A stretch of DNA of 64,000 bases, from contig CABRNK010000004.1 of the NCBI GenBank assembly GCA_902472305.1, positions 15,395 through 79,394 on the forward strand, in the 5' to 3' direction. Position numbers and translations under genes: made by a program. Origin of the DNA: an uncultured Oscillospiraceae bacterium. Lineage in GTDB: Bacteria; Bacillota; Clostridia; Oscillospirales; Acutalibacteraceae. Below are positions 16,546 to 34,232 of this stretch, one piece after another; position 1 is the stretch's first letter; the number at the start of each line of letters is the position of its first letter. Under the pieces are notes generated by a model. That model saw nothing but the letters and a program-made list of their open reading frames with translations, made no database searches and was not told the origin of the DNA.

Positions 16546-16871
16546 GCGGGATATTTCAAAAGGATCGACTGATCTGGAAACAGAAAAGTCAAAACTTTAA
16601 GCAAAGTCGAAGGCGCGATTAAGCCCTGAAAGGGTTTAATACAAGTTGGTATCCAAGACGTGTGGAACGATTTGGGACTTGTGTCACTTGCCATAACGCC
16701 CGTAAACGGGCGTTATTCCTTCTAGGCATGGATTGTGCTCTGCTCTGACTCCCTGATCTTAACTCGCTTCACCCGCAACTTGGAGCTAAAGCTTTAGGGT
16801 GTTCCCACCAGCATGGTGGTCCCATATGCAACAGAAAAATGGAGGACAGCCTGTATCGCACAGGCTGTCCT

Positions 16872-17110
16872 CGGTTTTTGTCGCTCACTTCTGCGCCTTT
16901 CCCATATGGCTCCGGTACTGCTCCGGCGTGACGCCATAGATCTTTCGGAAGGACTGGATGTAGTGGGATACATCGTTGTAGCCCACATGGGCGGCAATAT
17001 CACTGACCTTGAAGATAGTTTTTTCCAAAAGCTCGCGGGATTTTTCCAGCCGATATTCAATCAGATATTTTGAGAAGGTTTTGCAGCACTTCGCCTTGAA
17101 AAGCCGGCAA
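16872..17110 (-). pseudogene. C-terminal fragment of an AraC-family HTH regulator
   Basis: Minus frame reads ...KTFSKYLIEYRLEKSRELLEKTIFKVSDIAAHVGYNDVSHYIQSFRKIYGVTPEQYRSHMGKAQK*; no N-terminal part. Confidence 0.55.
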
Positions 17111-17136
17111 GGAACGGTAATATTTCTGAACTTTTG

Positions 17137-17877
17137 CTAGGTGTTGGCTCCATCGATAGTGGCGGCTTCATACAGATCCGCCGGAACGCTTTGCAGACCG
17201 GCCAGCAGGAGCACGGTAGGCGTTGCGCAGCCCTGTAAAATGTTGGATTGAAGCTGAGACAGCGTCCATGTGTCCTTGTCAGGGAACATGAATGCGACCT
17301 CACTCTTGCTTTTAATATCTTCGGCAATGGCGATCAGCTCGTCCCACATCGTGGGACTTTCATATCCGGCGGCCTCAAACTTATCAACGTCGTAGAATAC
17401 GCCCATGAAGTTGCAGGAGAAGGGCAGGCAGCAGTAGTGGCCGTCCTCGAATTTCACGGCGTCCAGATAGTTGGACATCACGTTGTCCATGCAGCCGACC
17501 TTGTCCAGCGCCCGCAGACGGCCCTGCTGCGCAAACTGGATGAACTGCGAATCGGTGGGCCCATGCATCATGACGTCGGGAATATCATTGGTTGCGGCGC
17601 GGGTCATCAGGACGGTCGCTGCATCGGGCACCACGTTCTGCGTGACTACGATACCGGGATTTTCCTCTTGGAACGCCTCGACCGCAGCGTTTAAGGAGTC
17701 CACGACCTCCCGCTTTTGCTGGAAAAACTCGATCTCAACGGTTGTGCCGGCAGCTTCCGGCGCGGATTCCCCGCTGCTGGAGGTGCTTCCATCAGCCGTA
17801 CTGCCTGCGGAGCCGGTATCCCCGCCGCAGCCGGCAATCATGCTGGCCAGCATGGCGGCGGCAAGAGAAACGACCAA
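17137..17877 (-). pseudogene. ABC transporter SBP N-terminal fragment fused in frame to a permease fragment (EAATIDGA)
   Basis: Lipoprotein signal ...LAAAMLASMIAGCGG. Body ends in ...LYEAATIDGANT, which is a permease signature. The upstream ATG is out of frame across a 7-nt homopolymer at 17882-17888. Confidence 0.6.
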
Positions 17878-18393
17878 AAGCTTTTTTTCATAACAACAAC
17901 ATCCTTTCTTTGTTGAGCGTTATCCCGAGATGTTTGACTATTTGCACAATCAATCTCGGCTTATCTGTGTATAATTATAGAAACTTTTTCGAAGATTTGG
18001 TATAAGATTTATTACGTTTCCCATATAGCAAAACTGATTTTTGTGTATTGTGTCCGAATGGGGGGGTTAAATACGTTTGATTTTGGTGCTTTTAAAAGTT
18101 TAACTTATCGGCATTCCGCCCACAAAATACCGTCCTTTTTCTCAGAGGAGAGGCAGGGCGCTGCCGTTGAGCAGAACGCGGGAGACATGCTCGCGGCAGT
18201 AGAGCTTCACCGCGCGGACCGGCATTACGGCCCCAGAGAGTATGAAGCTGCCATTGATAGCTCCGTCCAGTGGTATCAGCCGGAGTATTGGGCCTACCGG
18301 GAAAGAAGATTACAACAACAGGAAAAGAAACAGCTATCCTTTTATCGTCAGGAGCTGGAACGGTGAAGAATTTTGAGTTGAAAGGAGGGAGCC

Positions 18394-18500
18394 ATGGCAA
18401 GTAAATTCCAGACCATCACGGAACTGCATGGGAGCACAGCGAAAGCAGTGACCGCCACCCCGTCTAGCTGGAGGACGTTTTTTCACCACTTTCCGAGCGG
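18394..18500 (+). pseudogene. truncated ORF start (MASKFQTITELHGSTAKAV...) with strong RBS
   Basis: GAAAGGAGGGAGCC then ATG; the reading frame degenerates into low-complexity antisense sequence after about 35 codons. Confidence 0.25.
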
Positions 18501-18506
18501 GGTGCC

Positions 18507-19447
18507 TCATCCTCCGGGGACACTGTCCAGCAGTTCCCTGTCTTTTTCGTTCAGCTTCAGTAGCTTGGTCAGCTCCGCCAAGCGTTGGGGTTTCTCCCGC
18601 GGCTTCTGCCCCCGGCCAAGGGCTTTTCCGCTTTCGTCTTGGCAACAGGCACTCTGTTGCTCAAACGTAATTGCTTCAGTTCCAAATAACTTTCTGAGCT
18701 TATTCAGCTTGTCAAGCTGTTGTTTGTTTAGCTGTACGGTCTGCAAAATTGCTGAAATAGTATTTTTTGCGTTGCGTGAATCAGCCTGTGAATCCGTTCA
18801 TGCAGAATGATCAGATTGGTGTACAAGCGGCCGTCCTTCATGCTCTCCGGCACCAGCCCAAAGAAGTTGCCAATGCCGCAGGAAGGCCCCAAGATGTTAC
18901 CCGTGCGGAATCCCATGTTTTCCACCGTCTGGTAAATGGCCTTGATGACAACGGGAGAAGTGTGCTGGGCATTTAGGGTGGTGGCTTTGGTGGCATCTAT
19001 TCCCTGGAGGACAACAGGCTCTTCAGTCCTGCGAATTTCTTCGCCCACTGTGGATTGTCCCCCGTCAAACGCTTAGGGCAAGCCGCCCCAGCCCACATAC
19101 CGGGACAAGGTTTCCTGTTCCTCCGGAGTGGCCAACTTTCCTTCCGGCTCGATTTTCTGCAAGGCTTGGATGGCCGCTGCATTGTTGTGGAATTTTGTCT
19201 TGGCCCCGCCCTCGCCCAGATGGTCATCTGTAATGCGGAAGTTGTGGCGCTGTACCGGGGGAATTTCCGGGTACAGGGTCGTAAAGGTAATACGCTCACG
19301 GCGGGGGTGCTTTGGCGGCGGTGGAAGTGATTCTTCTTTTTTAGGCTGTTCCTGCTCCATGCCGGTCATTTGGCTTTCATGGCGATCAATATTCTCCATG
19401 GTGAGCCATTCCGGTTTTTCCGGCAGGGCGGTATAGAGTTCCCACAT
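18507..19447 (-). pseudogene. frameshifted 5' fragments of a conjugative-element-type DNA methyltransferase/helicase gene
   Basis: Fragments NFRITDDHLGEGGAKTKFHNNAAAIQALQKIEPEGKLATPEEQETLSRYVGWGGLP, then DNPQWAKKFAGLKSLL in another frame, then NAQHTSPVVIKAIYQTVENMGFRTGNILGPSCGIGNFFGLVPE (methylase motif I). Frames are interrupted. Confidence 0.5.
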
Positions 19448-19801
19448 TTTGGCAATTTACTCGTCCATATTCCCTGCCCGCAGGTGTTTTTCCGCCCGTC
19501 CGCCAGCATCCAGAAAGTAATCGCAATCGGTTTTTAAGCGGCTTAGCAGACAGTAACTTTCTTCTGCAAGCTCTTCTTTTTGGGGAGGTTCCTACACCTT
19601 AGGCGGCGCGGTGAACACCGGCGCGTTCTGGGATAATTTATAAGCATATCGAAATTATCCACATAAAAAGAAGGGATTATCCAAAGATTTTATATATAAA
19701 ATTCGGTATACTAATACCATCAAAAAGAAAAGGGAATGCGTCTGCCGGATTAGGCTGGCAGAGCATCCACGCAAAATCTACGGATGGAGGAGAGAATAGG
19801 C

Positions 19802-20884
19802 ATGAAACAGCGGAAGTTTATTCTGGTTGGAGCCGGTGGCTTCGGAGAATTCTGGGAAGAAATCTTTATTCCCAAGATGAAGGACTTTGCCGTTCCTGTA
19901 GCGGCGGTGGATGTTTCGGAGGAAGTTTTGAAGCTCCCCGTAAAATACGGCACTGTTCCGGCAGAGAAATGCTATACTGATCCCCGCAAGGCTATTGAGG
20001 AAAACCCCTGCGACTTTTTGGTGCTGGTGATTCCGCCTCAGGTACGGATGCAGTACATCGATCTGGCCGTTGAATACGGGCTGGATGTGGTTTGTGAAAA
20101 ACCTCTAGCCGACACCATGGAACATGCCTGCGAAATTTATGTGAAAATGCGGGATGCAGGACTCAAGGTTTCGGTTACGGTAAGTCATCGGATGGAGCAG
20201 AGCAAACAGTCTTTGAACCGGATTTTGGACAGCGGCAAATATGGGCCCATCAACTATCTTGTGGGAAGGCTGACTATGACCCGCAAATATGATCAGGGGA
20301 AAAAGTGGTTTGACAAACCGATCGATCAGCTCATCCGTGGCAACATTTCGGGCGGCCTGATCCACGAGCTGGACACGTTCCGCGGGCTGTCCCGTTCCAA
20401 TGCCAAAAAGGTCTACGCAAAGATGTGGAAATTTAATCCATCGGACAATAGCGCTGGCCCCAGCGCCTTTGCTCTGGTAGAGATGGAAAACGGCGTCCAG
20501 TGCGTGCTGGAACATTCCCATGCCAACGCAACGGAGCTTAACGGCTGGGCGCACGAGTTCTACCGCGCGGAATGTGCTTACGGCACTGTGGTGGTGGACA
20601 AGGAAAAGCTTACCGCCAGTTGTGATTTGGGACATCCTTATCCCACCTACTCCGAGATTCCTCTGGCTCAGCAGGACTTCTGGGATCATGCCTTGATTGT
20701 CCGAGATTTTTGCCATTGGCTGGACGGTGGCAATGAACCCGAAACCTGTATCCGGGACAACATGTACTGCTGCGCTCTGACTTTTGCAGCCATAGAAAGC
20801 GCCCTTACCGGCAGGGAGGTGGATGTCCCCGCGTTTCTGGACCGTTACGCGAAGAAATATGGAATCAATCTGGAAGAAGATTAA
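19802..20884 (+). CDS. Gfo/Idh/MocA family oxidoreductase (ThuB-like)
   Basis: GGAGGAG RBS then ATG MKQRKFILVGAGGFGEF Rossmann N-terminus. Confidence 0.8.
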   Translation: MKQRKFILVGAGGFGEFWEEIFIPKMKDFAVPVAAVDVSEEVLKLPVKYGTVPAEKCYTDPRKAIEENPCDFLVLVIPPQVRMQYIDLAVEYGLDVVCEKPLADTMEHACEIYVKMRDAGLKVSVTVSHRMEQSKQSLNRILDSGKYGPINYLVGRLTMTRKYDQGKKWFDKPIDQLIRGNISGGLIHELDTFRGLSRSNAKKVYAKMWKFNPSDNSAGPSAFALVEMENGVQCVLEHSHANATELNGWAHEFYRAECAYGTVVVDKEKLTASCDLGHPYPTYSEIPLAQQDFWDHALIVRDFCHWLDGGNEPETCIRDNMYCCALTFAAIESALTGREVDVPAFLDRYAKKYGINLEED

Positions 20885-20896
20885 GGAGGAGTAACT

Positions 20897-21859
20897 GTGC
20901 AGCGCTCTGAATCTGTCGTCCCGCCGGCAACTGCCGGAGTAAGGAACAAGAGCAAGGGCTTATGGCAGAAAATAAAGGCTCATAAGACCCTTTACCTCTT
21001 TCTGATGCCCGCCGTTCTGCTGGTGCTGGTTTTTAACTATGTCCCTATGGTGGGCCTAATTATGGCATTTCAGGATTATCGAGCCAATCTGGGCTGGTTT
21101 GGCAGCGAATTTGTGGGTCTGACCCATTTTGTAGAGTTCCTACAGGATCCCACTTTTTGGACGGTGCTAAAAAATACCCTGATTATCTCGATTGCATTGA
21201 CGATTTTTTCATTCCCAGCCCCTATTTTGCTGGCCATTTGTCTCGACAATATTCCAAGGCAGGGATTCAAGCGAGCGGCGCAAACCATCTCTTATTTACC
21301 GCATTTTATCTCCTGGGTGGTTATGGCAGGCTTAGTCTACCGACTGCTGGACACGGATACTGGAATCGTTAACTACATCATCCGTTCTCTGGGCTGCGAC
21401 CCCATTCCCTTTATGCGCACGCCGAGCATGTTTTTGCCCATCGTCATTATTGTGGACATTTTAAAGGAGGTGGGATGGAACTCCATCATTTTTCTGGCGG
21501 CCATCACAAATATCGACTCATCTCTGTATGAGGCAGCTCGTATCGACGGTGCCGGAAAGCTCAAATGCATCTGGTATATCACGCTGCCGGGCATCGGCCC
21601 CACCATCGGCACCATGCTCATCCTCCGGGTGGGCAGCATGGTCAATGTCAATTTTGATATGATCTTCAACCTTAAAAATCCCATGATCGACAGTGTGGCC
21701 AACGTTTTGGGAACCTTCGTTTACGAGCAGGGCATCCTCTGGGGAAAGTTCTCCTACGCTACCGCTGTGGGTATGGTTCAGGGCCTGATTTCGGTTATTC
21801 TGGTTTTCATCACCATGAAGGCTGCCAACAAAGTCTCGGGCGAATCCTATATCGTCTGA
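20897..21859 (+). CDS. sugar ABC transporter permease (LplB-like)
   Basis: AGGAGG then GTG; EAARIDGAGK signature. Confidence 0.8.
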   Translation: MQRSESVVPPATAGVRNKSKGLWQKIKAHKTLYLFLMPAVLLVLVFNYVPMVGLIMAFQDYRANLGWFGSEFVGLTHFVEFLQDPTFWTVLKNTLIISIALTIFSFPAPILLAICLDNIPRQGFKRAAQTISYLPHFISWVVMAGLVYRLLDTDTGIVNYIIRSLGCDPIPFMRTPSMFLPIVIIVDILKEVGWNSIIFLAAITNIDSSLYEAARIDGAGKLKCIWYITLPGIGPTIGTMLILRVGSMVNVNFDMIFNLKNPMIDSVANVLGTFVYEQGILWGKFSYATAVGMVQGLISVILVFITMKAANKVSGESYIV

Positions 21860-21881
21860 CCGGAAAGAAAGGAGGATTTTT

Positions 21882-22766
21882 ATGGCTATTCAGCGCTCCA
21901 GAGCGGAGAGAATCGGCAATGGAGTGTTCTACATTCTGCTTGTCCTGCTCTGTATCGTCACGCTTTACCCCTTCTATTACGTCCTCTGCTATTCGGTCAG
22001 CGAAGGCGCTGAGGCGGCCGCTAAGGTGGTCACTGTATATCCCCGAGGCTTTACTATGGACAATTACGATGCGGTTTTTCGGGATAAAAATCTGGGCAGC
22101 GCCTTTATAGTTTCAGTGCTGCGGACCGTCATCGGCACCGTGGGCACCCTCATTGTCACCAGCATCGCGGCTTATGCTCTGTCTCGAAAAAATCTCCCTG
22201 GCAAGAAGTGGATCATGTGGTTCTTTATGATTACCATGTACTTTAACGCCGGCACCCTGCCCAATTTCGTGGTGATGAGCAAGCTGGGACTTTTGGACAA
22301 TTTCGCGGTCTATATTCTGCCCATGCTCTTCAGCACCTACTACATGATCATCATAAAGTCCTTTTTTGAGCAGATTCCCACTGCGCTGATTGAATCCGCT
22401 GTGCTGGACGGTGCTTCGGAGTTCGTCATCTTTACCAGAATCGTCCTCCCTACCAGCACCGCCGTCATCGCCACCATCGCACTATTTGCTGGCGTGGCCC
22501 AATGGAATGCTTACTTCGACGGTATCCTTTATGTCTCTAATGAGAAGCTGCAGCCTCTGCAGACTTTGATGTACAAGATCCTCAAAAGCGAGCAGGCTTT
22601 CAGCCTTTCCCAAATTGCCAACGCCGCTGAGGGCGCGACCAGAATTACGGCTGAAGGTGTTAAGATGTCTATGCTGATCATCTCTACAGTTCCCATTCTC
22701 TGTGTTTATCCGTTCCTGCAGAAATACTTTGTCAAGGGTATTATGCTGGGGGCGGTTAAGGGCTAA
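21882..22766 (+). CDS. sugar ABC transporter permease (LplC-like)
   Basis: ESAVLDGAS signature; AAAGGAGG RBS. Confidence 0.85.
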   Translation: MAIQRSRAERIGNGVFYILLVLLCIVTLYPFYYVLCYSVSEGAEAAAKVVTVYPRGFTMDNYDAVFRDKNLGSAFIVSVLRTVIGTVGTLIVTSIAAYALSRKNLPGKKWIMWFFMITMYFNAGTLPNFVVMSKLGLLDNFAVYILPMLFSTYYMIIIKSFFEQIPTALIESAVLDGASEFVIFTRIVLPTSTAVIATIALFAGVAQWNAYFDGILYVSNEKLQPLQTLMYKILKSEQAFSLSQIANAAEGATRITAEGVKMSMLIISTVPILCVYPFLQKYFVKGIMLGAVKG

Positions 22767-22795
22767 AAACTTACTAAATCAAAGGAGGATTACAT

Positions 22796-24592
22796 ATGAA
22801 AAAAGCACTCTCTGTTATACTGCTGGCAGTCATGCTGCTGACCGGTTCTCTCACAGGCTGTGGTCAAGATACCGGCACTTCTGGCAACGGAAGCGATAGC
22901 AGCGGGTCAGCCATCGCTTCCGAAACTGCTGACAATAGTGATTTGGAATGGCTGACCTACACGTTTGTGGATGTCCGCAACTCAATCCAACCTGATGGCG
23001 AAAGCGATTTGGACTGCATCACCCCGTATCTGGAGGAGAAGTTCCACATCAAGGCGGAACGGGTGACTTTTGGTGAGGGTGAACCGGTTCAGCAGCGGCT
23101 GAACATGATGATTGCGGCCGGTACCTTGCCTGATGTGATCAATATTTCCAGTCCGGATCTTCCCTGGCTGGTCGGTATGGATGTGCTGCAGCCTCTGGAC
23201 GACTATTTGCAGTATGTGCCTACTATGACAAAATGGATTAACGAGCTGGGCTGGAAGATGATGAGTGTGGATGGCCAGACTTACGGCCTGCCCAACTATG
23301 GCATCCCCAACACGGATGATGCGGACGTCCAGACCCTGATCGATGAGAGCGACAAATTTTATCAGCCCTATTCCTCCGCACCTCTAAAGATCAACGAGAA
23401 AATTTTGGAGCAAGCCGGCTACCGCTTCACCAAGCTTTCTGATATTCAAGCGGCTTGCACGGCCGAGGGCAGGGCTCCCACTTGGGAAGATTTTGCCCTT
23501 GACCCGCCGGTGGAGACCTTTGAAGATTTTGAAAAACTTCTGTACACCATCCATGACACCGTCAAAACCGAATCCGGTGTGGAAGTGACGCCTCTAACGA
23601 TCAACGACTGGGCAATTCTCCATATCCAGAACCTCTTTGGTCCCGCCTCTCAATGGTGGCGTAATCCGGAGACGGGAGAGGTTTCCGGCTATCTGGATCT
23701 GCCTTGGGCCAAGGACACTTACAAAACTCTGGTCAAGTGGATTCACGATGGTATTCTGGATCCCGATTATCTGGTTCAGAAGCAGGAGCAGATACAAGAA
23801 AAAGTGGCTTCCGGGCGCGTTGCCATCTATTACTCGGTTCCCAACAATCTGGCTTGCCGTGAAGCCATGACTGCCGCCAACCCCGGTTATGATTTCCGTC
23901 CTATGCGTTGGCCTACCACCGCTTACGGGGACACCGTCAATTATCAGGGCCACGCAGTGGACGGCATCTATCCCGCTGGCTACGGAAACATGGTCATCAA
24001 CAAAGATTTTGAGGAGCCCCAGCGTCTGTTGGAGTACTTTGAATACCTGTGGAGTGAGGAATTTCTGGAATTGCAGACTTGGGGCACCGAAGAAGCCGGT
24101 CTTTACGAGATTATAGACGGCAAGAAACAGTTTAAGGATGAGGCCCTTTACGAGTCTATCCGTACCGGCACCAAAACTGATGACGGCATCTCTGCCTCTA
24201 CCTATGGTATCTACGACCCCAACAATTATTATAAGTATACTGCTCAGGCGCTCCTTATGGCCCCCATGCACCCCTTCAACTACAAGGATGCCCGGGGCAA
24301 TTACGGCCTGAATGTGGACGCTTACAACTATTTTGAAAAGATGGCGGGTTCCGAGAGCGTTGTTTCTGATGGTTCCGTTCTCTCCGCCGGTTACGATGAT
24401 TTGACCAATACTCCCAGCAACTTCTTTGCCTACGAGTTTAGAAGCAAGGGCATGGCCGAACTGATTGCGACAAATTCCGATGAGGAGTTCGATGCTGTTT
24501 GGGATAAGTGGTACGATGCCTTCCTGACCGAGGGCAAATACACGGAGGTCAAACCTCTGATGGAAGAGTACTACGAGAGCCTGCTGTCCTAA
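22796..24592 (+). CDS. large ABC transporter substrate-binding lipoprotein
   Basis: MKKALSVILLAVMLLTGSLTGCGQD lipobox; 598 aa; AAAGGAGG RBS. Confidence 0.8.
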   Translation: MKKALSVILLAVMLLTGSLTGCGQDTGTSGNGSDSSGSAIASETADNSDLEWLTYTFVDVRNSIQPDGESDLDCITPYLEEKFHIKAERVTFGEGEPVQQRLNMMIAAGTLPDVINISSPDLPWLVGMDVLQPLDDYLQYVPTMTKWINELGWKMMSVDGQTYGLPNYGIPNTDDADVQTLIDESDKFYQPYSSAPLKINEKILEQAGYRFTKLSDIQAACTAEGRAPTWEDFALDPPVETFEDFEKLLYTIHDTVKTESGVEVTPLTINDWAILHIQNLFGPASQWWRNPETGEVSGYLDLPWAKDTYKTLVKWIHDGILDPDYLVQKQEQIQEKVASGRVAIYYSVPNNLACREAMTAANPGYDFRPMRWPTTAYGDTVNYQGHAVDGIYPAGYGNMVINKDFEEPQRLLEYFEYLWSEEFLELQTWGTEEAGLYEIIDGKKQFKDEALYESIRTGTKTDDGISASTYGIYDPNNYYKYTAQALLMAPMHPFNYKDARGNYGLNVDAYNYFEKMAGSESVVSDGSVLSAGYDDLTNTPSNFFAYEFRSKGMAELIATNSDEEFDAVWDKWYDAFLTEGKYTEVKPLMEEYYESLLS

Positions 24593-24636
24593 GCCCGTGT
24601 TGATCTGAAGACTCACTTTATCTAAAGCGTTTGTAT

Positions 24637-24680
24637 TTGTTTCCCGCTGTCGGGCTGCCTTACCGGCGGCGGGAACATTG
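24637..24680 (+). terminator. hairpin ttcccgc...gcgggaa (weak or attenuating, no strong T-run)
   Basis: Inverted repeat read directly. Confidence 0.25.
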
Positions 24681-24762
24681 CTTTAACCCAGAGCGCCTTT
24701 TGTTGCTGGATGGGTTTTATTGACCAAAATGTTTTAATAAATAATCCATATTATATTTTAAC

Positions 24763-24791
24763 TTGACAAATAAAAGCTGATAATTTATAGT
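24763..24791 (+). promoter_or_regulatory. sigma-A-like promoter TTGACA-17-TATAGT upstream of ThuA-like gene
   Basis: Motifs and spacing read directly. Confidence 0.4.
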
Positions 24792-24806
24792 AAGGAGAGA
24801 TATTTT

Positions 24807-25565
24807 ATGGCGAAAATTCGTGTGACTGTTTGGAGCGAAGGCTTGGATCCTGTCAACGAACCCAAGGCCGTAGCGGTTTATCCAGATGATATCAACACGG
24901 TAATCGGCGGTTTCCTTGCGGAAAACGAGGATATGGAAATCACCCTGCATAACATCCGTGAGCCGGAAAATGGCCTGACTCAGGAGACCATAGACAACAC
25001 CAATGTACTGGTCTGGTGGGGACATATGTATCACGATGAGGTCTCCGATAAGGTGGCGGCCCGGGTGGCGGAGGCGGTGCTAAATGGTATGGGGCTGCTG
25101 CTGCTCCACTCCAGTATGGGCGCCAAGCCGGCCAGGGTGCTGTTGGGAAAGTGCAGCAACACCGGGAAGTACCGGGAAATCGGCGAACGGGAGCGCGTCT
25201 GGGTTGTGGATCGCAGCCATCCAGTGGTGGCGGGCCTGGAGAAGGAGTACATTGAGGTGGAAAAGACCGAGATGTATGGCGAGCCCTATGGCATCCCCAA
25301 CCCGGACAACACCGTTTTTATCAGCTGGTTTGAAGGGGGAGAAGTTCTCCGCAGCGGTGTCAGCTGGCACAGAGGGGCAGGTAAGATTTTCTTTTTCGCC
25401 CCCGGTCACGAGGAATATCCCATCTATTACGATGGAGAGATTCAAAAGGTCATTCGCAACTGCGTGCGATGGCTGTGCCCCATTAACAGCCCTAAGACTT
25501 CCTTCCACGGGTGCCTCAATCAGGTAACACCGCTAAGCCCCATCAATCTGAGCGGGAAGGAATAA
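24807..25565 (+). CDS. ThuA-like (trehalose utilisation protein A family, class-I glutamine amidotransferase-like fold)
   Basis: MAKIRVTVWSEGLD..VLVWWGHMYHDEV..GGEVLRSGVSWHRG..FFAPGHEEYPIY family-typical blocks; paralog at 44716. Confidence 0.75.
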   Translation: MAKIRVTVWSEGLDPVNEPKAVAVYPDDINTVIGGFLAENEDMEITLHNIREPENGLTQETIDNTNVLVWWGHMYHDEVSDKVAARVAEAVLNGMGLLLLHSSMGAKPARVLLGKCSNTGKYREIGERERVWVVDRSHPVVAGLEKEYIEVEKTEMYGEPYGIPNPDNTVFISWFEGGEVLRSGVSWHRGAGKIFFFAPGHEEYPIYYDGEIQKVIRNCVRWLCPINSPKTSFHGCLNQVTPLSPINLSGKE

Positions 25566-27453: not shown

Positions 27454-29032
27454 GTCGTTGGTGGTGGAAGACGAGGCGCTTATGCGCCGGACGGTGATCA
27501 AAAGGCTGGAAGCCTCTCCGGTAGGATTTCAGGTAGTCGGCGAAGCCAAAAACGGTCGGGAAGCGCTGAAACTGATCCGGCTTTTGCAGCCCAAGGTGGT
27601 TTTTAGCGACGTTTATATGCCGGTCATGGACGGTCTGGAACTGGCCCGGATTCTGCAAATGGAATTTCCTGAGATCAGGGTGGTAATCATCAGCGGCCAT
27701 CGAGATTTTGAGTATGCGCAGAAGGCCATCCGCTATGGGGTAGTCAATTATCTGATTAAACCGCTGGAACCGAAGGCTCTGGACGAAGTGCTCACCTCTC
27801 TGCGGGAGAGGATCCTCCGGGAGCAATCCAATCTGGTCCGCCGGGACATTGAGGAGATGCTGAGCGGCGGAGCAGGAAGGGGTGCAGGCCGAAGATTCGG
27901 CTTTTTTCTGGCCTCTCTGGGGTATTCTCTTTCTGCTCCAACCGTAGAGGCATCCATGCGCTTAAAGGGGCTGTGGAGCCAGGTGCTGGGGCAGCTGCCG
28001 GAGGACCCAGACTGGTATGTTTTCAACGGGTCCAGGACAGGAGAAATGTATTTTCTTTGTGAACTGTCCGGTGTGAACACTGAGACACGGATGGAAAGGC
28101 TGGCAAAACAGCTTTTCGAAAGCCTTCTGTCACTGTCAGACGGCCATCCCGTCAACCTTTGCGCGCCCCATGGAGGGGTGACGGAGGAAAACCTCTTTCC
28201 CGTTCGGCAACAGTGCAGCCGGCTTTTGCTGGAGCAACAGAGGATTGGGCCGGGGGCGATTTTCTGGCTGCAGGAGAGTTCGGAGGAAACCGGCAGCCAC
28301 GATACACTGCTGACCATGCAGCAGATGAATGTTATCAAAACTTTGGCCAGCTACCGCAACGGTACAGCGCTCTGCCGGGAACTGGAAAAACTGCTGACCG
28401 AATGGGATGCCATGGGATGCCGGCAGAGCGCCTTTGAAAACACACTGGGTTCTGTGCTCTGGATGATTGCCAACAGTCTGTCCGGCTGCTCGGAGCAAAA
28501 GGTGTGGCACGCCAAGAGTACCATACTTTCCCATTTGGCCCTCTCCGCCCGGCTTGTCGACGTGATTCCCACAGTTGAGAGTGCTGTGAAGGATATGATG
28601 CTCTCGGAAGATGCTGTTGCCGGCGATAGTAGCAATCTGGGACAGATGATTGAAACATATATTCAGGATCACTTTACCGAGCAGTTCAGCATGGATACCC
28701 TGGCCAGTCACTTCGGTTTTAATTTGTCCTATTTGACCCGCATCTTTAAAAATTACAAGCAGGAATCCCCGCTGAAATACTTGATCTCGTTGCGAATGAA
28801 CCGCGCTCTGGAGCTGATGCGTCAGTACCCGGAGATGGATATCAAGAGTATTGGGGAAGCGGTGGGGTATGACGACCAGCATTATTTCAGCCGAGTATTC
28901 AAAAATGCCATGGGGATGAGCCCTATAAAATATCGAGAGGCGTTAACCAAGGGGGAAGAGATCACCGCCAGCTCCGCCGTTGGACTGGAAGTGCTGTTCC
29001 CGGCCGGAACTTCGCCGGATCATATTCCGTAA
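27431..29032 (+). CDS. response regulator, REC + AraC-type HTH (YesN-like)
   Basis: GGAGGG RBS. N-terminal receiver VVEDEALMRR...VFSDVYMPVMDG. C-terminal AraC HTH ...YFSRVFKNAMGMSPIKYR. Confidence 0.8.
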   Translation: MSMNPLIESLVVEDEALMRRTVIKRLEASPVGFQVVGEAKNGREALKLIRLLQPKVVFSDVYMPVMDGLELARILQMEFPEIRVVIISGHRDFEYAQKAIRYGVVNYLIKPLEPKALDEVLTSLRERILREQSNLVRRDIEEMLSGGAGRGAGRRFGFFLASLGYSLSAPTVEASMRLKGLWSQVLGQLPEDPDWYVFNGSRTGEMYFLCELSGVNTETRMERLAKQLFESLLSLSDGHPVNLCAPHGGVTEENLFPVRQQCSRLLLEQQRIGPGAIFWLQESSEETGSHDTLLTMQQMNVIKTLASYRNGTALCRELEKLLTEWDAMGCRQSAFENTLGSVLWMIANSLSGCSEQKVWHAKSTILSHLALSARLVDVIPTVESAVKDMMLSEDAVAGDSSNLGQMIETYIQDHFTEQFSMDTLASHFGFNLSYLTRIFKNYKQESPLKYLISLRMNRALELMRQYPEMDIKSIGEAVGYDDQHYFSRVFKNAMGMSPIKYREALTKGEEITASSAVGLEVLFPAGTSPDHIP

Positions 29033-29111
29033 TGGTTAGGGGGCCCGCTTATGGATGGGGGAATGCTTCTAACACAAGCGGGCCTGCCTATTTACAGTTA
29101 GGAGTACAACT

Positions 29112-30296
29112 ATGCAAAAAAACGATTCCAGAATGGTTTATGCCTACTTTTCCATCCTTTACTTTTTGAATATGTCCTCCCGGGCGCTGTTTACCCCCTT
29201 TTTTACGGTGTACCTTCAGGAAAAGGGGCTGGACGTTTCAGAGATTGGAACCGTCATGTCGATAAATTCGATTATCATCATTCTCTCTCAGCCATTTTGG
29301 GGGATGATTGCGGATCGGGTCGGATCTTCCAGAAAAGTGCTGGCCTGCTGCTTCCTCTTTCAGGCGGCGGTAGTGTTCAGCTTTAATCTGGTTCACACCG
29401 CCCTGCTGGTGGCGGTGACTTTCTTCCTGAGCACGTTCTGTTCCTCGCCGGAGGGCCCGCTGATGGACACATGGGTGCTAGGAAATATGAAAGCCTCCGG
29501 CAATGCCAAAGGGGTGGGAAAGCTAAAATTTTGGGGCTGCGCCGGTTACGCCCTCTTCAGTCCGTTGGGCGGCGCGCTGATTCAGAGATATTCCACCGGC
29601 AGGGTGACGCCGATCTTTGCGGTTTTGCTTTTGCTGCTGGGACTGTTCATCTGGTTTTTGGGCTGGGACGAACCCAAAAGCGCACAAGAGAATAGCCGTG
29701 TTCAGCTGGGACGAATCCTTCGGGATGCGCCGCTGCTGATTTTTTTGGCCTATTTAGTGGTGATGCAGGTCCCGCACAGGGCCGCCTACACGTTTTATCC
29801 TCTGCTAATTGAGGATTTGGGCGGCGATCAGACTATGATCGGCTACACCAGTTCGGTGATGTTTATCTCCGAAGCGGTGATGATGTTCCTCTCCACATAC
29901 TTTTTGAAAAAACTCAAGCCCATTCACATCGTGCTGCTTTCTTCCTGCTTTTTTGCCCTCTGGCAATTCCTGTACAGCGGCATGACGGAGGCCTGGCAGG
30001 TGGCCGCGGCAGCTGTGCTGGACGGCCCGGCTTTCGCTTTCCTCTCCTTGGGTATCCTCTATTATGTGGACGAGATAGCCCCGCCTCAGCTGCGCAGCAC
30101 CTATCAGACCTTGATCTATTCCTTCTATTTTGGCTTGAGCGGCATCATCGGCAACGTCTGGGGCGGCTGGGCTGTGGAGAACATCGGTTACCAGCCAATG
30201 TATCTGGCAGGGGGATGCTTGGTGCTGGTTTCCACCTTGCTGTTCTCCCTATACAGCAGGCGGCAGAGCCAGAAGAAGGGCCTTAATCACACATAG
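29112..30296 (+). CDS. MFS transporter
   Basis: 12 predicted TM segments; 394 aa. Confidence 0.7.
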   Translation: MQKNDSRMVYAYFSILYFLNMSSRALFTPFFTVYLQEKGLDVSEIGTVMSINSIIIILSQPFWGMIADRVGSSRKVLACCFLFQAAVVFSFNLVHTALLVAVTFFLSTFCSSPEGPLMDTWVLGNMKASGNAKGVGKLKFWGCAGYALFSPLGGALIQRYSTGRVTPIFAVLLLLLGLFIWFLGWDEPKSAQENSRVQLGRILRDAPLLIFLAYLVVMQVPHRAAYTFYPLLIEDLGGDQTMIGYTSSVMFISEAVMMFLSTYFLKKLKPIHIVLLSSCFFALWQFLYSGMTEAWQVAAAAVLDGPAFAFLSLGILYYVDEIAPPQLRSTYQTLIYSFYFGLSGIIGNVWGGWAVENIGYQPMYLAGGCLVLVSTLLFSLYSRRQSQKKGLNHT

Positions 30297-30492
30297 GACG
30301 CGGGAGAGCCCCCTCAGCTTTCTCCCTCCAATCCTGCCGCGGGCCTGTTGAACCGCGGGGCGTGATAGAGCGGGCGGACAGGATTCCGCGTGAAATGAGT
30401 TCCAATCCCTGAAAAGGGGAACAGGATAAGAACAATTTCTGCTGATTGCAGGTATGAAAAGCAATGGCTTAAAACATAAAGGAGGACCGACT

Positions 30493-31863
30493 ATGGCAAG
30501 AGTATTTTCAAGACTGACGTTTCATTCATACAGCGCCAAGCTCAATCAGGGCTTTCAGTGGGCGATGCGTCAGGCGTTGAGCTATGTGCATTCAGGCGGT
30601 GACCCGGTGGGATATTGGTATGAAGCGGCTCTCCCCGGGCGGGATGCCTTCTGTATGCGGGATGTTTCCCATCAGTCATCCGGGGCGGCGGCCATGGGAT
30701 TTTCCGCCCACAACCTCAATATGGCTCAGAAATTTGCCGCCTCCATCAGCGAGGGCAAGGACTACTGCTGCTTTTGGGAGATTAATCGGGAGGGTCTTCC
30801 CGCGCCGGCAGATTACCAGAGTGACGAGAACTTTTGGTATAACCTTCCCGCCAGCTTCGATCTGCTGGACTGCTGCATGCGAATGTATCAGTGGACCGGC
30901 GACCAGAGGTGGCTTGATGACCCTGTTCTGCGGCGGTTTTATGATCTGACCATGCACGAATATATTGCCCGCTGGGATAAAAACGGCGACGGCATCCCTG
31001 AGCGAGCTGTGGCCGGAAGCGTCCGGGGCATTCCTTCTTACGACGAATCGGGCCATTCCGATGCGCTGATGATGAATGATCTGCTGGGCTGTCAGGCCGC
31101 CGGCTGCGACGCCTACGCCTTTTTCTGCCAGATGACGGGGAGGGAGAAAGAAGCGGAGGACTTTCGAGCCGAGGGGAAGCGAATCCGCAGCCTCTTGGAA
31201 ACCCAGTGGTGGGATGAAGCTGCTGGCCGTTATTTTACGATCTGTCAACCCGACGGCAGCCTGATCCACAAAGGGAAAAATGACCTTTCCGCCTCCCTGA
31301 TTTTTGACGGTGCGCTGCGGATCCCAGAGCGGCTTTTGGGAATGCTGGATCAGATTGACAGCACGTCCCAGCGGTGGCAGATTGAAGGGCTCTCCCACTG
31401 CCCCATGTACTTCTATCCCTACGGCCAAAAGGAACGGGGCATGAAGTGGCTGCTCAGGCTGCTGGATCCTGATGTTCCCAGAAGAGAGTATCCCGAGGGA
31501 TCCTTTTCGGTGGTAATCGCCTTGGCAGAGGGGCTTTTGGGCCTGACTCCCATTTGGAACACTGGGACGCTCCAGACTGTTTCGAGCCTGGATCAGAGCC
31601 TTTCTTTCGCGGAAATGAAGCATATTTCCGTGTTTGGGGGCGAAATTGACCTGCGGCAGGAAGAGAGCGCTTCCGTGCTCACCAACCGCACAGGCAGAGA
31701 GATCCAGTGGAAAGCAGGGTTTGATGGATGTCACAAAACCCTCTTGGTCAACGGGGAGCAGAGGTGTGCTGTCCAAGAAACAATTAATGTTATTCGGGGC
31801 TGCAGTTTCTGCACTGTGCCCCTGAAAGAGGGCGAAACAGCTCGAGTGGAGGCAAAGGGATAG
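30493..31863 (+). CDS. hypothetical protein, possible glycoside hydrolase-like (alpha/alpha toroid type)
   Basis: AAAGGAGGACCGACT RBS then ATG MARVFSRL; about 456 aa; no confident family. Confidence 0.35.
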   Translation: MARVFSRLTFHSYSAKLNQGFQWAMRQALSYVHSGGDPVGYWYEAALPGRDAFCMRDVSHQSSGAAAMGFSAHNLNMAQKFAASISEGKDYCCFWEINREGLPAPADYQSDENFWYNLPASFDLLDCCMRMYQWTGDQRWLDDPVLRRFYDLTMHEYIARWDKNGDGIPERAVAGSVRGIPSYDESGHSDALMMNDLLGCQAAGCDAYAFFCQMTGREKEAEDFRAEGKRIRSLLETQWWDEAAGRYFTICQPDGSLIHKGKNDLSASLIFDGALRIPERLLGMLDQIDSTSQRWQIEGLSHCPMYFYPYGQKERGMKWLLRLLDPDVPRREYPEGSFSVVIALAEGLLGLTPIWNTGTLQTVSSLDQSLSFAEMKHISVFGGEIDLRQEESASVLTNRTGREIQWKAGFDGCHKTLLVNGEQRCAVQETINVIRGCSFCTVPLKEGETARVEAKG

Positions 31864-32097
31864 AAGGAACGAGAGAAAATCCGGCTGAGGCTTTTTTTGC
31901 CCGATGGATGGCGGCTAATGGACAAAGTTACATCCACAGCGGGGAAAATTAAAATAAAGTGCCCCGCTGCCGCCGTGTGATTACAGTTGACCTGTATCTG
32001 CGAAAGGGCAGACCCCTGTACCAAACAGCGCGTCAGGGATATATTGTAAGGCTTCGTACCGAGCAATGGGTCCGCGGGAAACCGTGAGTCACCAAAA

Positions 32098-32161
32098 GGC
32101 CGGACGTGGAGAGGAAAATCTCTAGTTTGAGCTTTTCTCCTCATGTCCGGCCTTTTTTTTG
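32098..32161 (+). terminator. strong intrinsic terminator with no upstream ORF (orphan terminator or 3' end of an sRNA)
   Basis: ggccggacgtggagaggaaaa...ttttctcctcatgtccggcc plus a T9 run. Confidence 0.5.
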
Positions 32162-32367
32162 TTGTTTCGGTTCCGGAAATGGAGCAAGCGATGGCCTTAT
32201 ATCAGTGGCAGGAGGCGTTCTGCCGGTATCCCTGACTTTCCGATTTTCTCCCACAGAAAAATCGGAAAGGAGTCAGAGGCCTGAAGCGCGCCTATCATTT
32301 TGTCAACGAAACCGTAGAAATTGAAGTTGAGGAAAAGTGGGATCAGGGTCTAAAAGAGCTTGACCGT

Positions 32368-32700
32368 TTGGAGTACAACAACAATCCAAAAGAGACACGT
32401 CGGCATTCCTCCTTGGATGACCCGAGTGGAAAGGGCGGTCACATTCCCTGTGAGGACAATTTGGAGGAGATGGCGGAGCGTCTGGAGGAAATTGAGGCGT
32501 TAAAACAGGCGGTAGTCACTCTGGGGCAAACGCAAAAGGTCTTGCTTCGAAGGGTCTACATCCTAGAGGAAAAGCAATCGGAAATTGTCAGGAGAGGGGG
32601 GGCAGCGGGCGGCCATATCCAAACGGCTCGACAGGGTTTGCAGGCTGCTGAAAAAATTTTTTGAAAAATCTTAAAAACAGGCAGAAAGATTTCCAGTTCC
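32368..32700 (+). pseudogene. small sigma-70 region-4-like HTH gene disrupted by a frameshift in a G7 run (32596-32602)
   Basis: In-frame ...LKQAVVTLGQTQKVLLRRVYILEEKQSEIVRR then garbage. The alternative frame after the G-run reads QRAAISKRLDRVCRLLKKFFEKS*, a typical ending. Confidence 0.45.
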
Positions 32701-32838
32701 CGTGGCTTATAGATAGAAGGACTTTTTCGGAGGGCTTCCCCGCCGGAAAGTCTTTCCCAGAACCATGACAACTGAATACGCACTTCATCCAGTCGATTCC
32801 CACCGTGAGATTGAGGAGCCAAAGCCAAATAAAAAACT

Positions 32839-34047
32839 ATGATGGAAATCATGGAGAAAACAAAAAAAGTTGATAGCGAAACTACTGTCCTATATGTGTG
32901 TCTTTCCAGAGTGGAAGGAGAAAGCAATTCCATTTCCAACCCAAAGGCTATGCCGACGGATTACGCGAAACGGCACAAATACAAGAATGTCCGTATTTTC
33001 GTGGACGATAGTGTTTCCGGTGTCACCGTGAAGCGAAATGGATTCCAGAAGATGATGGCTTTGGTGGAGGCGGGAAAAGCCTCCGCTGTAATCGTTAAGG
33101 GTCTGCCCCGTCTGGGGCGGAATTATCTAGAGGTTGTACAAGCTCACGGAAACTGTTTTCTCTTGCACAACGTTCACTTCATCGCCGTCAACAATGGGGT
33201 GGACAGCGAGCAGGGCGAGGACGACTTTATCCCCCCCTTTTTTCCATAATATTATGAACGAGTGGTACGCCAAGGACATGAGCCGAAAAATGCGCTCCAG
33301 TATACGGACGAAAAGCAAACAGGGGTACGCCATTGGACGGCCTCCTCTGGGATATATGCACGATGCAGAAAACCCGAAACTCTGGTATGAGAAGGTGCTG
33401 ATCCCCTCCATCTATGCCGAGCGGAAGGGCTTTAAGAAACCCATCCGGCGGGCTACCCGGGGAGAGTAGCAATGGGACACCAGCATGGTGCGCCAGATTT
33501 TGCACAATCAGGGGTGTCCACGATGCCATCATCTCTCGAGGGGATTGGGAGGCCGTCCAAAAGACCTTTAGAGACACAAAATATAGAAAGCCGTTGCACA
33601 TGGAGAAAAATATGTTTTGCGGCTACCTCAAGTACTCCGGCTGCGGCGTAAATCTCAACTACATACACCCATGACAACCCGGACAACACTACGTTTCCTG
33701 CCGCAATAAACGGGCAGGAAACAGCCTTTGCAGCAAAACCCAGCACATCCGGGTGGGTACTTTACGAGAAGTTGTTTGAAGAAAAAATCCTCGGCAATCT
33801 CACCGAGGAACGTTTCAAGAAGTTGTCTGAGAAATACGAGGATGAGCAGGCCGAGCTGACTCAGCACATCCGGCACATGAAAAAAGTGGTGGCGGAGGAG
33901 CAAAAGCATGAGCTGAACGCCGAGGGATTCCTCCGGCTGGTACGGAAATGCACCGATATTGAGATGCTGATCCCGAAAATCCTCCGGGAGTTCATTGACA
34001 AGGTTGTGGTGCATCACCGGGAGAAGCAAGGGAAAGAAACTGTGTAG
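32839..34047 (+). pseudogene. large serine recombinase, multiply frameshifted/deleted
   Basis: Resolvase N-domain LYVCLSRVEGES...VKGLPRLGRNYLEVVQAH...FIAVNNGVDSEQGEDDF. Frame switch at C7T6 (33231-33243) into NIMNEWYAKDMSRKMRSSIRTKSKQGYAIGRPPLGY. Later fragments WDTSMVRQILHNQ, GVHDAIISRGDWEAVQ and a C-terminal coiled-coil LIPKILREFIDKVVVHHREK. Confidence 0.6.
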
Positions 34048-34184
34048 CAGGTAGATATATACTACTGCTTCATTGGCCATGTGGAACTGCCTAAGCGGAG
34101 CAAGCCCCGGCGGGAGGCGTATTTGCTCAGTTTTAGCCGTGAAAAAGAAGAAAGCCAAAGTGCCTAAAGCACTGAGGCTTACAT

Positions 34185-34228
34185 AAAAAGAAAATACCCA
34201 CAGGGGCTCAGGCCCCTTATGGGTATTC
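34185..34228 (-). terminator. intrinsic terminator of the tRNA operon
   Basis: aatacccacaggggc-tcag-gcccctTatgggtatt hairpin followed (on the minus strand) by a T-rich run. Confidence 0.6.
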
Positions 34229-34232
34229 ACTA

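Follow-up and report, generated by a model that had tools for sequence, protein, structure and literature searches.

Positions 16546-34232 of the window (the whole 64,000-nucleotide stretch of DNA analysed here, from a gut Acutalibacteraceae bacterium) are best explained as a composite genomic island that was acquired horizontally, grew at a hotspot for integration next to tRNA genes and can no longer move, and that carries a sugar cassette which would serve as an uptake and oxidation module; we give this reading a probability of roughly 0.6. Descent from one fossil integrative and conjugative element (ICE) is no more likely than a composite origin, since some strains carry a further tandem element at the tRNA cluster.

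Composition and left limit

By composition, the 17.7-kb block is foreign DNA, with a GC content of 0.516 against 0.602 elsewhere in the window (left flank 0.611, right flank 0.598). Values for 1-kb windows are 0.517 +/- 0.020 inside (n=17) and 0.601 +/- 0.044 outside (n=45; Mann-Whitney p=4e-8), and the tetranucleotide distance to the remaining window is 0.036-0.040 inside versus 0.011-0.021 for most outside windows, that is, two to three times the flank values. GC3 ranges from 0.605 to 0.696 (about 0.64) in nine cargo ORFs and from 0.732 to 0.853 (about 0.82) in 19 host ORFs, the two ranges being disjoint. Sliding-window GC and k-mer signature thus both bear out the lower-GC island of the original prediction. 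A second low-GC patch (about 0.43-0.44) lies at 38.1-39.4 kb in the window, so the further claim that island genes are less GC-rich than everything outside does not hold. All four sub-segments of the island are uniformly low in GC (0.531, 0.509, 0.519 and 0.497), a uniformity that also fits one donor element and counts against a composite reading.

The left limit lies in the following feature:

16546-16884, no strand: non-coding spacer past the GH140 stop codon, with the island's left limit somewhere inside

Similarity to the closest other species stops at 16535-16540. The spacer contains hairpins, for example at 16835-16879 (inverted repeat I3), and neither ARAGORN nor Rfam found a tRNA remnant in it.

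Right terminus at a tRNA cluster

The right side of the island carries a large serine recombinase (LSR) module that ends at an integration hotspot cluster of tRNA genes:

32260-32664, + strand: decayed sigma-70 region-4-like HTH gene without a proper start codon
32745-32828, + strand: LSR leader region, conserved with intact LSR relatives
32839-34167, + strand: LSR pseudogene, its pieces matching P0025
34168-34232, + strand: conserved right terminus of the LSR element (attR side), hairpin included
34233-34309, - strand: tRNA-His(gtg)
34314-34390, - strand: tRNA-Arg(tct)
34431-34504, - strand: tRNA-Gly(tcc)

The predicted tRNA adjacency stands for the 3' end of tRNA-His alone, with the Arg and Gly tRNAs lying behind it. 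Alignment with intact relatives indicates that the LSR element truly ends at this edge, with its terminus kept to the base at 34232. The LSR C-terminus and following bases match the window in five intact relatives (four aligned, one by inspection), and homology ends precisely at the CCA end of the convergent tRNA, which in the window is tRNA-His at 34233. The terminus is conserved with L096, L100 and L104 as far as ...GGGTATTCACTA, followed by TGG (the tRNA CCA). Three intact relatives (P0025, P0026 and P0028) stop 64-71 bp short of a convergent tRNA's 3' end (Leu(tag), Leu(taa) and Leu(cag), in that order), and the DNA at this terminus is conserved with the window exactly as far as the tRNA; a fifth relative, L115, adjoins a tRNA 3' half. 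These matches show that an LSR-carrying element entered the site at the tRNA-His CCA end.

A search for direct repeats matching the 3' end of tRNA-His found none, an absence that is uninformative either way: the serine integrase of Tn4451 leaves a 2-bp repeat and such enzymes give very short repeats only (PMC5704250), which makes this the wrong test. The left end (attL) of the LSR element was not found, which counts against the composite reading.

The recombinase itself is dead and its gene destroyed. Its pieces match P0025 residues 2-144, 113-265, 298-389 and 440-575 in differing frames, and three or more frameshifts, a stop codon, two deletions and a mutation in the catalytic motif agree with the multiple frameshifting that had been predicted. 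An in-frame TAG lies at 34045-34047 and the invariant RLSRDD motif has become CLSRV; Resolvase (2.4e-15) and DUF4368 (7e-14) are still matched. The TnpX/TndX recombinases of Tn4451 and Tn5397 combine Resolvase, Recombinase, Zn_ribbon_recom and DUF4368, as do the intact relatives of the window's LSR, and sit at the element end, as here, whereas the window copy is a pseudogene. In Tn5397 and Tn916 a sigma-region-4-like regulator precedes the recombinase, and the window module is arranged alike. The predicted sigma-r4 identity of the gene at 32260-32664 is weakly suggested, mainly by synteny with the sigma70_r4 genes upstream of intact LSR relatives, while its NCBIfam sigma70-ECF match (E=1.6e-4) falls below the cut-off. 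The leader is 77-81% identical to L096 5914-5996 and L098 1-66. Described serine-recombinase ICEs and IMEs enter protein genes (rumA, mutT, traG, hsdM) or have low specificity (PMC5704250, PMC4701971), whereas the clade of the window's LSR is found beside tRNAs of several kinds, at a distance of 64-71 bp from their CCA end.

The intact relatives L096 and L100 have just ~6.5 kb in common, beginning immediately upstream of the sigma-like gene, and conjugation genes are absent within 10 kb of intact LSR relatives. A small non-conjugative LSR island running from the sigma-like gene to the LSR (32.2-34.2 kb), with the cassette and left debris having arrived earlier by other routes, is an unlikely account. 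Homology between two intact relatives does start ~65 bp upstream of the sigma-like gene, the window does retain the sigma-leader-LSR backbone without the relatives' SLH/PemK cargo, and a terminator-like hairpin at 32094-32156 divides the module from the 469-aa gene. However, the homology boundary of two elements need not be an element end, the region near 32.1 kb yielded nothing resembling an attL, and the additional low-conservation genes left of the sigma gene in Solibaculum (L104) could be cargo.

Debris on the left side

Beyond the spacer, the island begins with gene fragments:

16885-17104, - strand: AraC-type regulator, C-terminal HTH fragment (HTH_AraC 8.3e-12 and HTH_18 1.5e-9 on 16885-17028)
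17105-17217, - strand: ABC permease fragment (EAA loop), an in-frame fusion between the SBP and AraC fragments
17259-17916, - strand: truncated sugar-binding lipoprotein (SBP), N-terminal ~215 aa (SBP_bac_1 7e-17, SBP_bac_8 1.3e-14)
17917-18820, no strand: debris, short ORFs only, without family match
18821-19633, - strand: polyvalent methylase/SNF2-helicase gene, three internal pieces from LPD11 to the N6-methylase start

The permease fragment contains the motif LLAGLQSVPADLYEAATIDGA and gives a weak BPD_transp_1 match at residues 221-245 of a 246-aa ORF, and the SBP fragment has a GC3 of 0.72, intermediate between cargo and host. The SBP, permease and AraC remnants are a sugar operon that collapsed through deletions. 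In the stretch that follows, 18043-18366 and 18507-18746 have no Pfam or NCBIfam match, and 17917-18820 has no Rfam match.

Homology indicates that the polyvalent pieces (~0.8 kb, with an LPD11 match, in-frame stops and internal deletions) come from a conjugative-element gene. By tblastn they match a 3208-aa protein from Subdoligranulum variabile (LPD11, N6-methylase and SNF2 helicase; OY725857.1) at its residues 1072-1095, 1341-1409 and 1556-1744, with 51-71% amino-acid identity, and this protein adjoins VirB4-like, coupling protein (T4CP) and relaxase genes. They are thus internal and not the methyltransferase/helicase N-terminus of the original prediction. Unlike that protein, the window copy has ~280 of ~3200 codons left, broken by stops and deletions. 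It and the sigma/LSR module occupy opposite strands, and no relaxase, T4CP or VirB4 remnants were detectable in the island by tblastn. The predicted mobile-element and operon debris is recovered as Resolvase, DUF4368, LPD11, SBP_bac_1 and HTH_AraC fragments.

Sugar cassette

Between the debris and the LSR module lies a foreign cassette with intact genes, about 10.5 kb long, or 12 kb when the 469-aa glycosidase-like gene is counted in:

19657-19783, + strand: upstream promoter/operator region (46 bp at 78% identity upstream of the L103 Gfo gene)
19784-20884, + strand: Gfo/Idh/MocA oxidoreductase (PF01408, PF22725; 83% identical to the L087 orthologue)
20897-21859 and 21882-22766, + strand: two ABC permease genes (BPD_transp_1; dN/dS 0.07 vs L087)
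22796-24592, + strand: 598-aa solute-binding protein of a rare family (dN/dS 0.04)
24807-25565, + strand: ThuA-like protein (PF06283 2.4e-27; PDB 1t0b 2e-72)
25573-27453, + strand: YesM-type histidine kinase (PF06580)
27416-29032, + strand: response regulator with AraC output domain (PF00072, HTH_AraC)
29112-30296, + strand: MFS sugar transporter (MFS_1_like 1.9e-49, LacY_symp 4.5e-19)
30454-31863, + strand: 469-aa protein, absent from the L087 cassette

Pfam (GFO_IDH_MocA, two BPD_transp_1, ThuA, His_kinase, Response_reg with HTH_AraC, MFS) confirmed the predicted cargo identities. With dN/dS at 0.04-0.16, the cassette evolves under purifying selection, in keeping with the predicted intactness; strain L094, a point against the reading preferred here, has a 29-bp deletion (frameshift) in the kinase gene. 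The 598-aa protein has no Pfam match itself, several of its homologues carry SBP_bac_1, and only 24 homologues were found among 5.8 billion clusters. For the 469-aa protein there is no Pfam, NCBIfam or PDB sequence match; weak matches of its family profile to trehalase (2.5e-5), rhamnosidase B, GH121 and YgjK suggest that it is probably an (alpha/alpha)6-barrel glycosidase-like enzyme. The host has its own ThuA/Gfo/ABC locus nearby, at 41457-46672, and the ThuA of the island is 51% identical to the native one at 44716-45486.

Other contigs of Oscillospirales type (L087, L089, L090 and L103; contig GC 0.475 to 0.59) also contain the cassette as a unit, and no mobility genes are visibly linked to it there. 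In rhizobia and Agrobacterium, thuEFGKAB is a trehalose and sucrose-isomer utilisation locus, an operon that, like the cassette, encodes a ThuA-domain protein, a Gfo/Idh/MocA oxidoreductase and a CUT1-type ABC importer (SBP and two permeases). The likeness is one of domain content. Unlike thuEFGKAB, the cassette lacks an ATPase gene (none was found in the island), has a YesM/YesN-type two-component regulator, adds an MFS transporter as well as an (alpha/alpha)6-like enzyme, and uses the unusual 598-aa SBP.

Distribution and origin

Scored on contigs spanning its left side, the island is present in 24/24 same-species contigs examined with the exact GH140 protein and in 24/24 with the exact SBP, and is found downstream of GH140 at none of 36 loci in other species. 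In L054, GH140 is followed after ~500 bp by tRNAs Lys-Gln-His-Arg-Gly, oriented as in the window; this single empty-site case is limited by the distance of the relative, whose GH140 is 73% identical, and by its non-syntenic right flank. L052 has GH140 adjoining homologues of window 35374-37892. In the nearest of the other species (GH140 88%), the genes that follow GH140 are different ones and a tRNA is absent, which counts against the preferred reading. This comparison of related genomes upholds the predicted island. A native region of atypical composition, never horizontally acquired, would accord with presence in all same-species contigs examined and with the native ThuA/Gfo/ABC locus already nearby, yet it is highly improbable given the disjoint GC3 distributions, the bounding mobile-element remnants, the absence from all 36 other-species GH140 neighbourhoods and the quite different GC of the contigs that hold the nearest cassette relatives.

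Some strains carry a tyrosine-integrase element inserted in tRNA-Arg, with a 135-bp repeat, and GCA_046972185.1 has the island and this second element on a single contig, a direct view of tandem accretion. The fossil ICE of the original prediction is supported in its parts (foreign DNA, an LSR terminus at tRNA-His, a dead recombinase, intact cargo and a conjugative-gene piece) and less so in their union. One LSR-type ICE that brought the sugar cassette to tRNA-His and was later stripped of conjugation genes by deletions, so that a wrecked recombinase remained at one end and the polyvalent piece near the other, is possible and rather doubtful. The similar GC and tetranucleotide signature throughout the 17.7 kb, an LSR and sigma-like module at the far right end, as in known LSR elements, and the conjugative fragment towards the left all speak for it. 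Against it stand the lack of any tblastn trace of relaxase, T4CP or VirB4, the opposite strands of the polyvalent fragment and LSR module, the intact LSR relatives with their short shared backbone and no nearby conjugation genes, the cassette's occurrence elsewhere unlinked to ICE or LSR genes, and a tRNA site that demonstrably collects separate tandem elements.

The preferred composite island resembles the tRNA-associated islands and dICE/IME remnants of Firmicutes (PMC4701971, PMC5704250) in its atypical composition and tRNA 3'-end insertion, in a recombinase at the extreme end by the attachment site, and in decayed mobility genes, kept cargo and tandem accretion at one site. Unlike usual islands at tRNA sites, it has a large serine recombinase and not a tyrosine integrase, which is why long flanking direct repeats are missing. 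At least two acquisitions at the tRNA site would have built it, with older material shifted leftwards, as is paralleled today by strains with the extra element in tRNA-Arg, and subsequent deletions would have stripped whatever was not selected for.

The cassette, its substrate and enzymology being read from domain names alone, may be a self-regulated uptake and oxidation module. Its two-component system would detect an extracellular glycoside or disaccharide and switch the operon on, the SBP and two permeases would import the substrate with an ATPase supplied from elsewhere in the genome, and the 469-aa (alpha/alpha)6-like enzyme would cleave the sugar. The thuAB 3-keto-disaccharide route offers an analogy for the Gfo/Idh/MocA dehydrogenase and ThuA-like protein, which may likewise act on the sugar. 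The island is an ordinary, well-preserved case of how such islands form and then freeze in place.

Composition and limits of the island

The low-GC block proposed in the original prediction proved to have sharp edges by GC content, GC3 and tetranucleotide distance. GC content is 0.516 across 16546-34232, against 0.611 in the left flank and 0.598 in the right flank, and the mean over 1-kb windows is 0.517 inside the island and 0.601 outside (Mann-Whitney p = 4e-8). The suggested k-mer and sliding-GC comparison likewise sets the island apart from its flanks, with tetranucleotide distances to the rest of the window of 0.036-0.040 inside and 0.011-0.021 in most outside windows. GC3 values of nine cargo ORFs (0.61-0.70) do not overlap those of 19 host ORFs (0.73-0.85). 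The island therefore has the atypical composition of tRNA-associated islands, and it is of foreign origin. No tRNA remnants (Gln/Lys) or other RNAs were found in it, and near-identical DNA was not found in plasmids or phages. Its neighbours are:

15028-16545: GH140 gene, left neighbour (domains DUF5060, Apiosidase and DUF5605, as expected of GH140; called start ATG at 15028, not GTG)
34233-34504, minus strand: tRNA-His(gtg), tRNA-Arg(tct) and tRNA-Gly(tcc)

A decayed serine recombinase at the tRNA-His CCA end

Decay of the mobility genes had been predicted, and the large serine recombinase (LSR) at the right edge is indeed broken. Translation of 31860-34235 yields the gene in plus-strand pieces in differing frames, which align to residues 2-144, 113-265, 298-389 and 440-575 of P0025, the best intact relative. 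The reading frame shifts at least three times and also runs into a TAG at 34045-34047; two deletions have removed ~30 and ~50 codons (about 80 in total). The Resolvase domain is still matched at 2.4e-15, and the RLSRDD motif, invariant in 16 of 16 intact relatives, reads CLSRV here. Of the other parts of the TnpX/TndX type, Recombinase (0.045), a zinc-ribbon region (P0025 residues 298-389) and a C-terminal DUF4368 (7e-14) are retained. Ahead of the LSR the window preserves two parts of the relatives' backbone, an 84-bp leader at 32745-32828 and a sigma-region-4-like gene, now decayed; the SLH and PemK genes that the relatives have between leader and LSR are absent. The pseudogene and the LSR-to-tRNA ends of the window and the relatives are:

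32839-34167, plus strand: LSR pseudogene, the site-specific recombinase at the element end
34168-34309: LSR-to-tRNA end in the window
L096 11729-11876, L100 11711-11861, L104 (Solibaculum) 11684-11841 and L115 2705-2845: corresponding ends in contigs of LSR relatives

The natural LSR stop codon (34165-34167) and the tRNA-His 3' end are 65 bp apart; element DNA stops at 34232 and directly abuts the CCA of the tRNA, which starts at 34233. The intact relatives P0025, P0026 and P0028 (64%, 62% and 55% identity; the last from an assembly of Solibaculum mannosilyticum that includes a contig of 2.5 Mb) each stop 64-71 bp short of the 3' terminus of a convergent tRNA: Leu-tag, Leu-taa and Leu-cag, respectively. 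From the LSR C-terminus on, their DNA matches the window until ...GGGTATTCACTA, followed by TGG (CCA) and then by differing tRNAs, and in a fifth relative (L115 from IMG/VR, 67% identity) a tRNA 3' half adjoins in the same manner. Because the relatives share this layout and the terminal DNA, 34232 is the true right end of the LSR element at the tRNA-His CCA. The LSR thus mediated insertion at tRNA-His, and the recombinase subsequently decayed.

The element terminus common to the clade reads GCCCCTTATGGGTAYTC..T.TGG; scans of viral and metagenome contigs with this pattern gave 0 matches. Among LSR loci that are more remote (37-45% identity) and extend far enough past the gene, a tRNA lies downstream in just 3 of 55. 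We give even odds to the reading that the dead LSR belongs to a clade whose elements, all with one conserved terminus, insert at the extreme 3' (CCA) end of various tRNA genes (Leu-tag, Leu-taa, Leu-cag, His-gtg and a fifth). Were such a family to recognise something that these tRNAs have in common (T-arm/acceptor end), its choice of target would be unusual. The serine integrases described for ICEs and IMEs of Firmicutes insert within protein genes (PMC5704250, PMC4701971), whereas members of this clade are found at the CCA ends of differing tRNAs. The type of recombinase is the sole feature in which the island departs from a textbook tRNA-hotspot island.

A left end (attL) was not found by direct-repeat or inverted-repeat searches, the right end alone being conserved with intact relatives, and no inverted copy of the terminus occurs in the window, L096, L100 or L104. 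The direct repeats of the tRNA-His 3' end that had been anticipated did not materialise beyond chance level in 16.3-20 kb, where repeats of the LSR-tRNA spacer also gave chance-level matches only; tRNA-derived direct repeats flanking the island, a mark of tRNA islands, were thus not found. This carries no weight, since serine-recombinase elements are flanked by very short repeats only, the Tn4451 recombinase exchanging at a 2-bp core (PMC5704250, PMC4701971). The best of these matches, the 12-mer ACATAAAAAGAA at 19661 and 34181 (E = 0.065), sits inside the conserved upstream region of the sugar cassette, and we rejected it as an att site.

Debris at the left edge

Two sets of gene remnants lie near the left edge, and 17917-18820 between them obtained no assignment:

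18821-19633, minus strand (19633-18821): polyvalent-gene fragments, LPD11 domain and start of an N6-methylase
16885-17916, minus strand (17916-16885): collapsed sugar operon, remnants of SBP, permease and AraC in this order

A homologue search with the polyvalent fragment returned short partial proteins only, and its context came from a match in a plasmid collection. This distant DNA search led to a 3208-aa ORF (LPD11, N6_Mtase, SNF2, Helicase_C) in a record of Subdoligranulum variabile, where its neighbours are VirB4-like, coupling-protein, relaxase, adhesin and group II intron genes. The window retains only residues 1072-1095, 1341-1409 and 1556-1744 of this protein, and the fragment is therefore an internal remnant. 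An ICE-type gene fragment is present as originally predicted, but it is not the N-terminus of a methyltransferase/helicase, its pieces falling within residues 1072-1744. The island thus holds the remnant of a conjugative-element gene; the other genes of the Subdoligranulum element have no match in the window.

The decayed SBP, permease and AraC fragments reported for this edge were recovered in 17916-16885. In a single frame, the first ~215 residues of a sugar-binding lipoprotein run into the EAA loop of a permease, and past one stop codon the frame goes on into the C-terminal ~70 residues of an AraC-type regulator. Deletions have collapsed an operon here.

An intact sugar cassette under selection

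The predicted cargo annotations hold for Gfo/Idh/MocA, the two permeases, ThuA, the YesM-type kinase, the response regulator with AraC output and MFS. ThuA matches PF06283 at 2.4e-27 and PDB 1t0b at 2e-72, as expected of a thuEFGKAB-type locus. The likeness to the thuAB plus ABC arrangement is by domains only, the oxidoreductase being known here by its Gfo/Idh/MocA superfamily domains alone, and 16546-34232 encodes an SBP and two permeases but no ABC_tran gene for the importer ATPase (ThuK). The 598-aa SBP has no Pfam match; its family is rare, with 24 clusters, and SBP_bac_1 is present in several of them. A 469-aa protein gave no direct match; it has a 628-cluster family, a profile of which weakly matches (alpha/alpha)6 glycosidases (trehalase at 2.5e-5, rhamnosidase B, GH121, YgjK), and a single-sequence AlphaFold model was unusable (pLDDT 33.6).

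The order Gfo, permease, permease, SBP, ThuA, kinase, regulator was found again in four other contigs (GC 0.475-0.59; SBP identities 86, 79, 73 and 66%), two of which also carry the MFS gene. Upstream homology to one of these, L103, begins at window position 19657, and the left limit of the cassette is therefore set there, beside the truncated polyvalent fragment. Compared with L087, another of the four, seven cassette genes have dN/dS of 0.04-0.16 and are therefore under purifying selection; the cassette is both intact and selected. No LSR or conjugation genes were seen beside it in the four contigs, which are short. In L089, from Ruminococcaceae bacterium OttesenSCG-928-L11, a rolling-circle Rep fragment (REP_ORF2-G2P, 72-569) precedes the cassette, which hints that mobile DNA adjoins it in that genome as well. 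A 29-bp deletion at L094 13295, equivalent to window 26093-26121, frameshifts the cassette histidine kinase in one metagenome strain (sample SHAO19-1).

The host has a native high-GC locus at 41457-46672 comprising SBP, permease, permease, ThuA and Gfo/Idh/MocA. The ThuA proteins of the two loci are 51% identical and the Gfo proteins only 25%. With the cassette, the genome has two divergent ThuA/Gfo/ABC systems 7 kb apart, one native and one on the island. A 70-nt tRNA-Gly(tcc) called by ARAGORN at 42342-42411, inside the native SBP gene (41457-42761), has no support from Rfam and is probably a false positive.

Distribution and a live tRNA hotspot

In the public collection, 455 blocks list the exact GH140 protein and 494 list the exact SBP. 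All 24 + 24 same-species contigs read from these sets, counting contigs that span the left side of the island, are arranged like the window, down to the debris, and are 99.7-100% identical to it. The island is uniformly present in them, and no empty site was seen. The proposed presence/absence comparison with other species drew on 80 loci with a 60-88% identical GH140; in the 36 with downstream sequence the cassette is absent (0/36), giving the sporadic distribution of tRNA islands. In one such locus (L054), tRNAs Lys-Gln-His-Arg-Gly follow on the minus strand 515 bp after GH140, and in another (L052) homologues of window 35374-37892 come after GH140 in inverted orientation.

A 338-kb metagenome contig, ERZ946527 NODE_2, is 100% identical to the window solely within 14735-34505, a stretch that begins within an FGGY kinase gene and stops where tRNA-Gly ends. 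To the left it switches abruptly to ~65% identity at a conserved FGGY motif, and to the right, at the tRNA-Gly end, to another sequence upstream of the tRNA operon. We judge a chimeric assembly, joined at conserved sequences, more likely here than a recent inter-species transfer of GH140 and island by homologous recombination.

Strain variation at the tRNA cluster was read via look-up of the right-flank protein (35437-36516). In three NCBI assemblies, a low-GC element that encodes a tyrosine integrase of 334 aa lies between the island and a Crp-like gene:

L093 21438-21797 and L109 1-8873 (GCA_046972185.1), also L110 and L113: tyrosine-integrase element

Its junctions place it in the anticodon region of tRNA-Arg(tct), and it is flanked by a 135-bp repeat equal to window 34231-34365 (tRNA-His and the 3' half of tRNA-Arg); it encodes HipA-like, Bro-N, small resolvase and AcrVA2-like proteins. 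In GCA_046972185.1 the fossil island and this element stand in tandem on one contig, with ~51 kb from the LSR remnant to Crp. Accretion at the cluster is therefore observed, not assumed. Yet another occupant is found there in L111.

At a second tRNA, two copies of a ~165-nt direct repeat (37908-38071 and 39305-39469; identity 92-95%) enclose a 1.2-kb segment (37908-39541 region) whose GC is ~0.43-0.44 and which adjoins the 3' end of tRNA-Gln(ttg) at 39467. It holds a 213-aa DUF6883 protein and a 127-aa ORF and lacks an integrase; L111 has a second, 83%-similar cassette of this kind, and the islet therefore looks like a variable cassette array.

Origin of the island

The locus is a decayed island at a tRNA hotspot, typical of its kind, and we favour a composite origin through two or more events (probability about 0.6). 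The original prediction of a fossil ICE stands as to foreign origin, an LSR next to the tRNAs, recombinase decay, a conjugative-gene remnant and a retained cassette; the union of these parts in one ICE is unlikely. Of the features that define an ICE, a recombinase at the element end is present as a pseudogene, and relaxase, VirB4 and coupling protein were not found. Neither the relaxase of the Subdoligranulum element nor VirB4-like and T4CP proteins found a match in the window by tblastn, and the ORFs and fragments of 16546-34232 were assigned or had no hit.

Descent from a single fossil ICE would account for the uniform composition across the block and for the polarity, which is as expected, with the LSR at one end and the ICE fragment towards the opposite one. 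It is nevertheless unlikely, given the absence of relaxase and T4SS traces, the position of the polyvalent fragment on the strand opposite the LSR module, the small size of the LSR relatives, which have no conjugation genes within 10 kb, the lack of visible mobile linkage of the cassette elsewhere, and the tandem accretion that occurs at the site. Less probable still is a minimal LSR islet that came to lie beside older debris.

For annotation, these 17.7 kb count as species-specific accessory DNA. The LSR clade with its tRNA-end sites is the most reusable by-product, and targeting of a shared tRNA feature, if true, would be unusual and possibly useful. The tRNA His-Arg-Gly cluster of this species is a landing pad that is still live, as the ~51-kb further element in other strains indicates. 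The island itself offers a base-exact example of a gut commensal that retains a useful foreign sugar-utilisation cassette while its vehicle decays.
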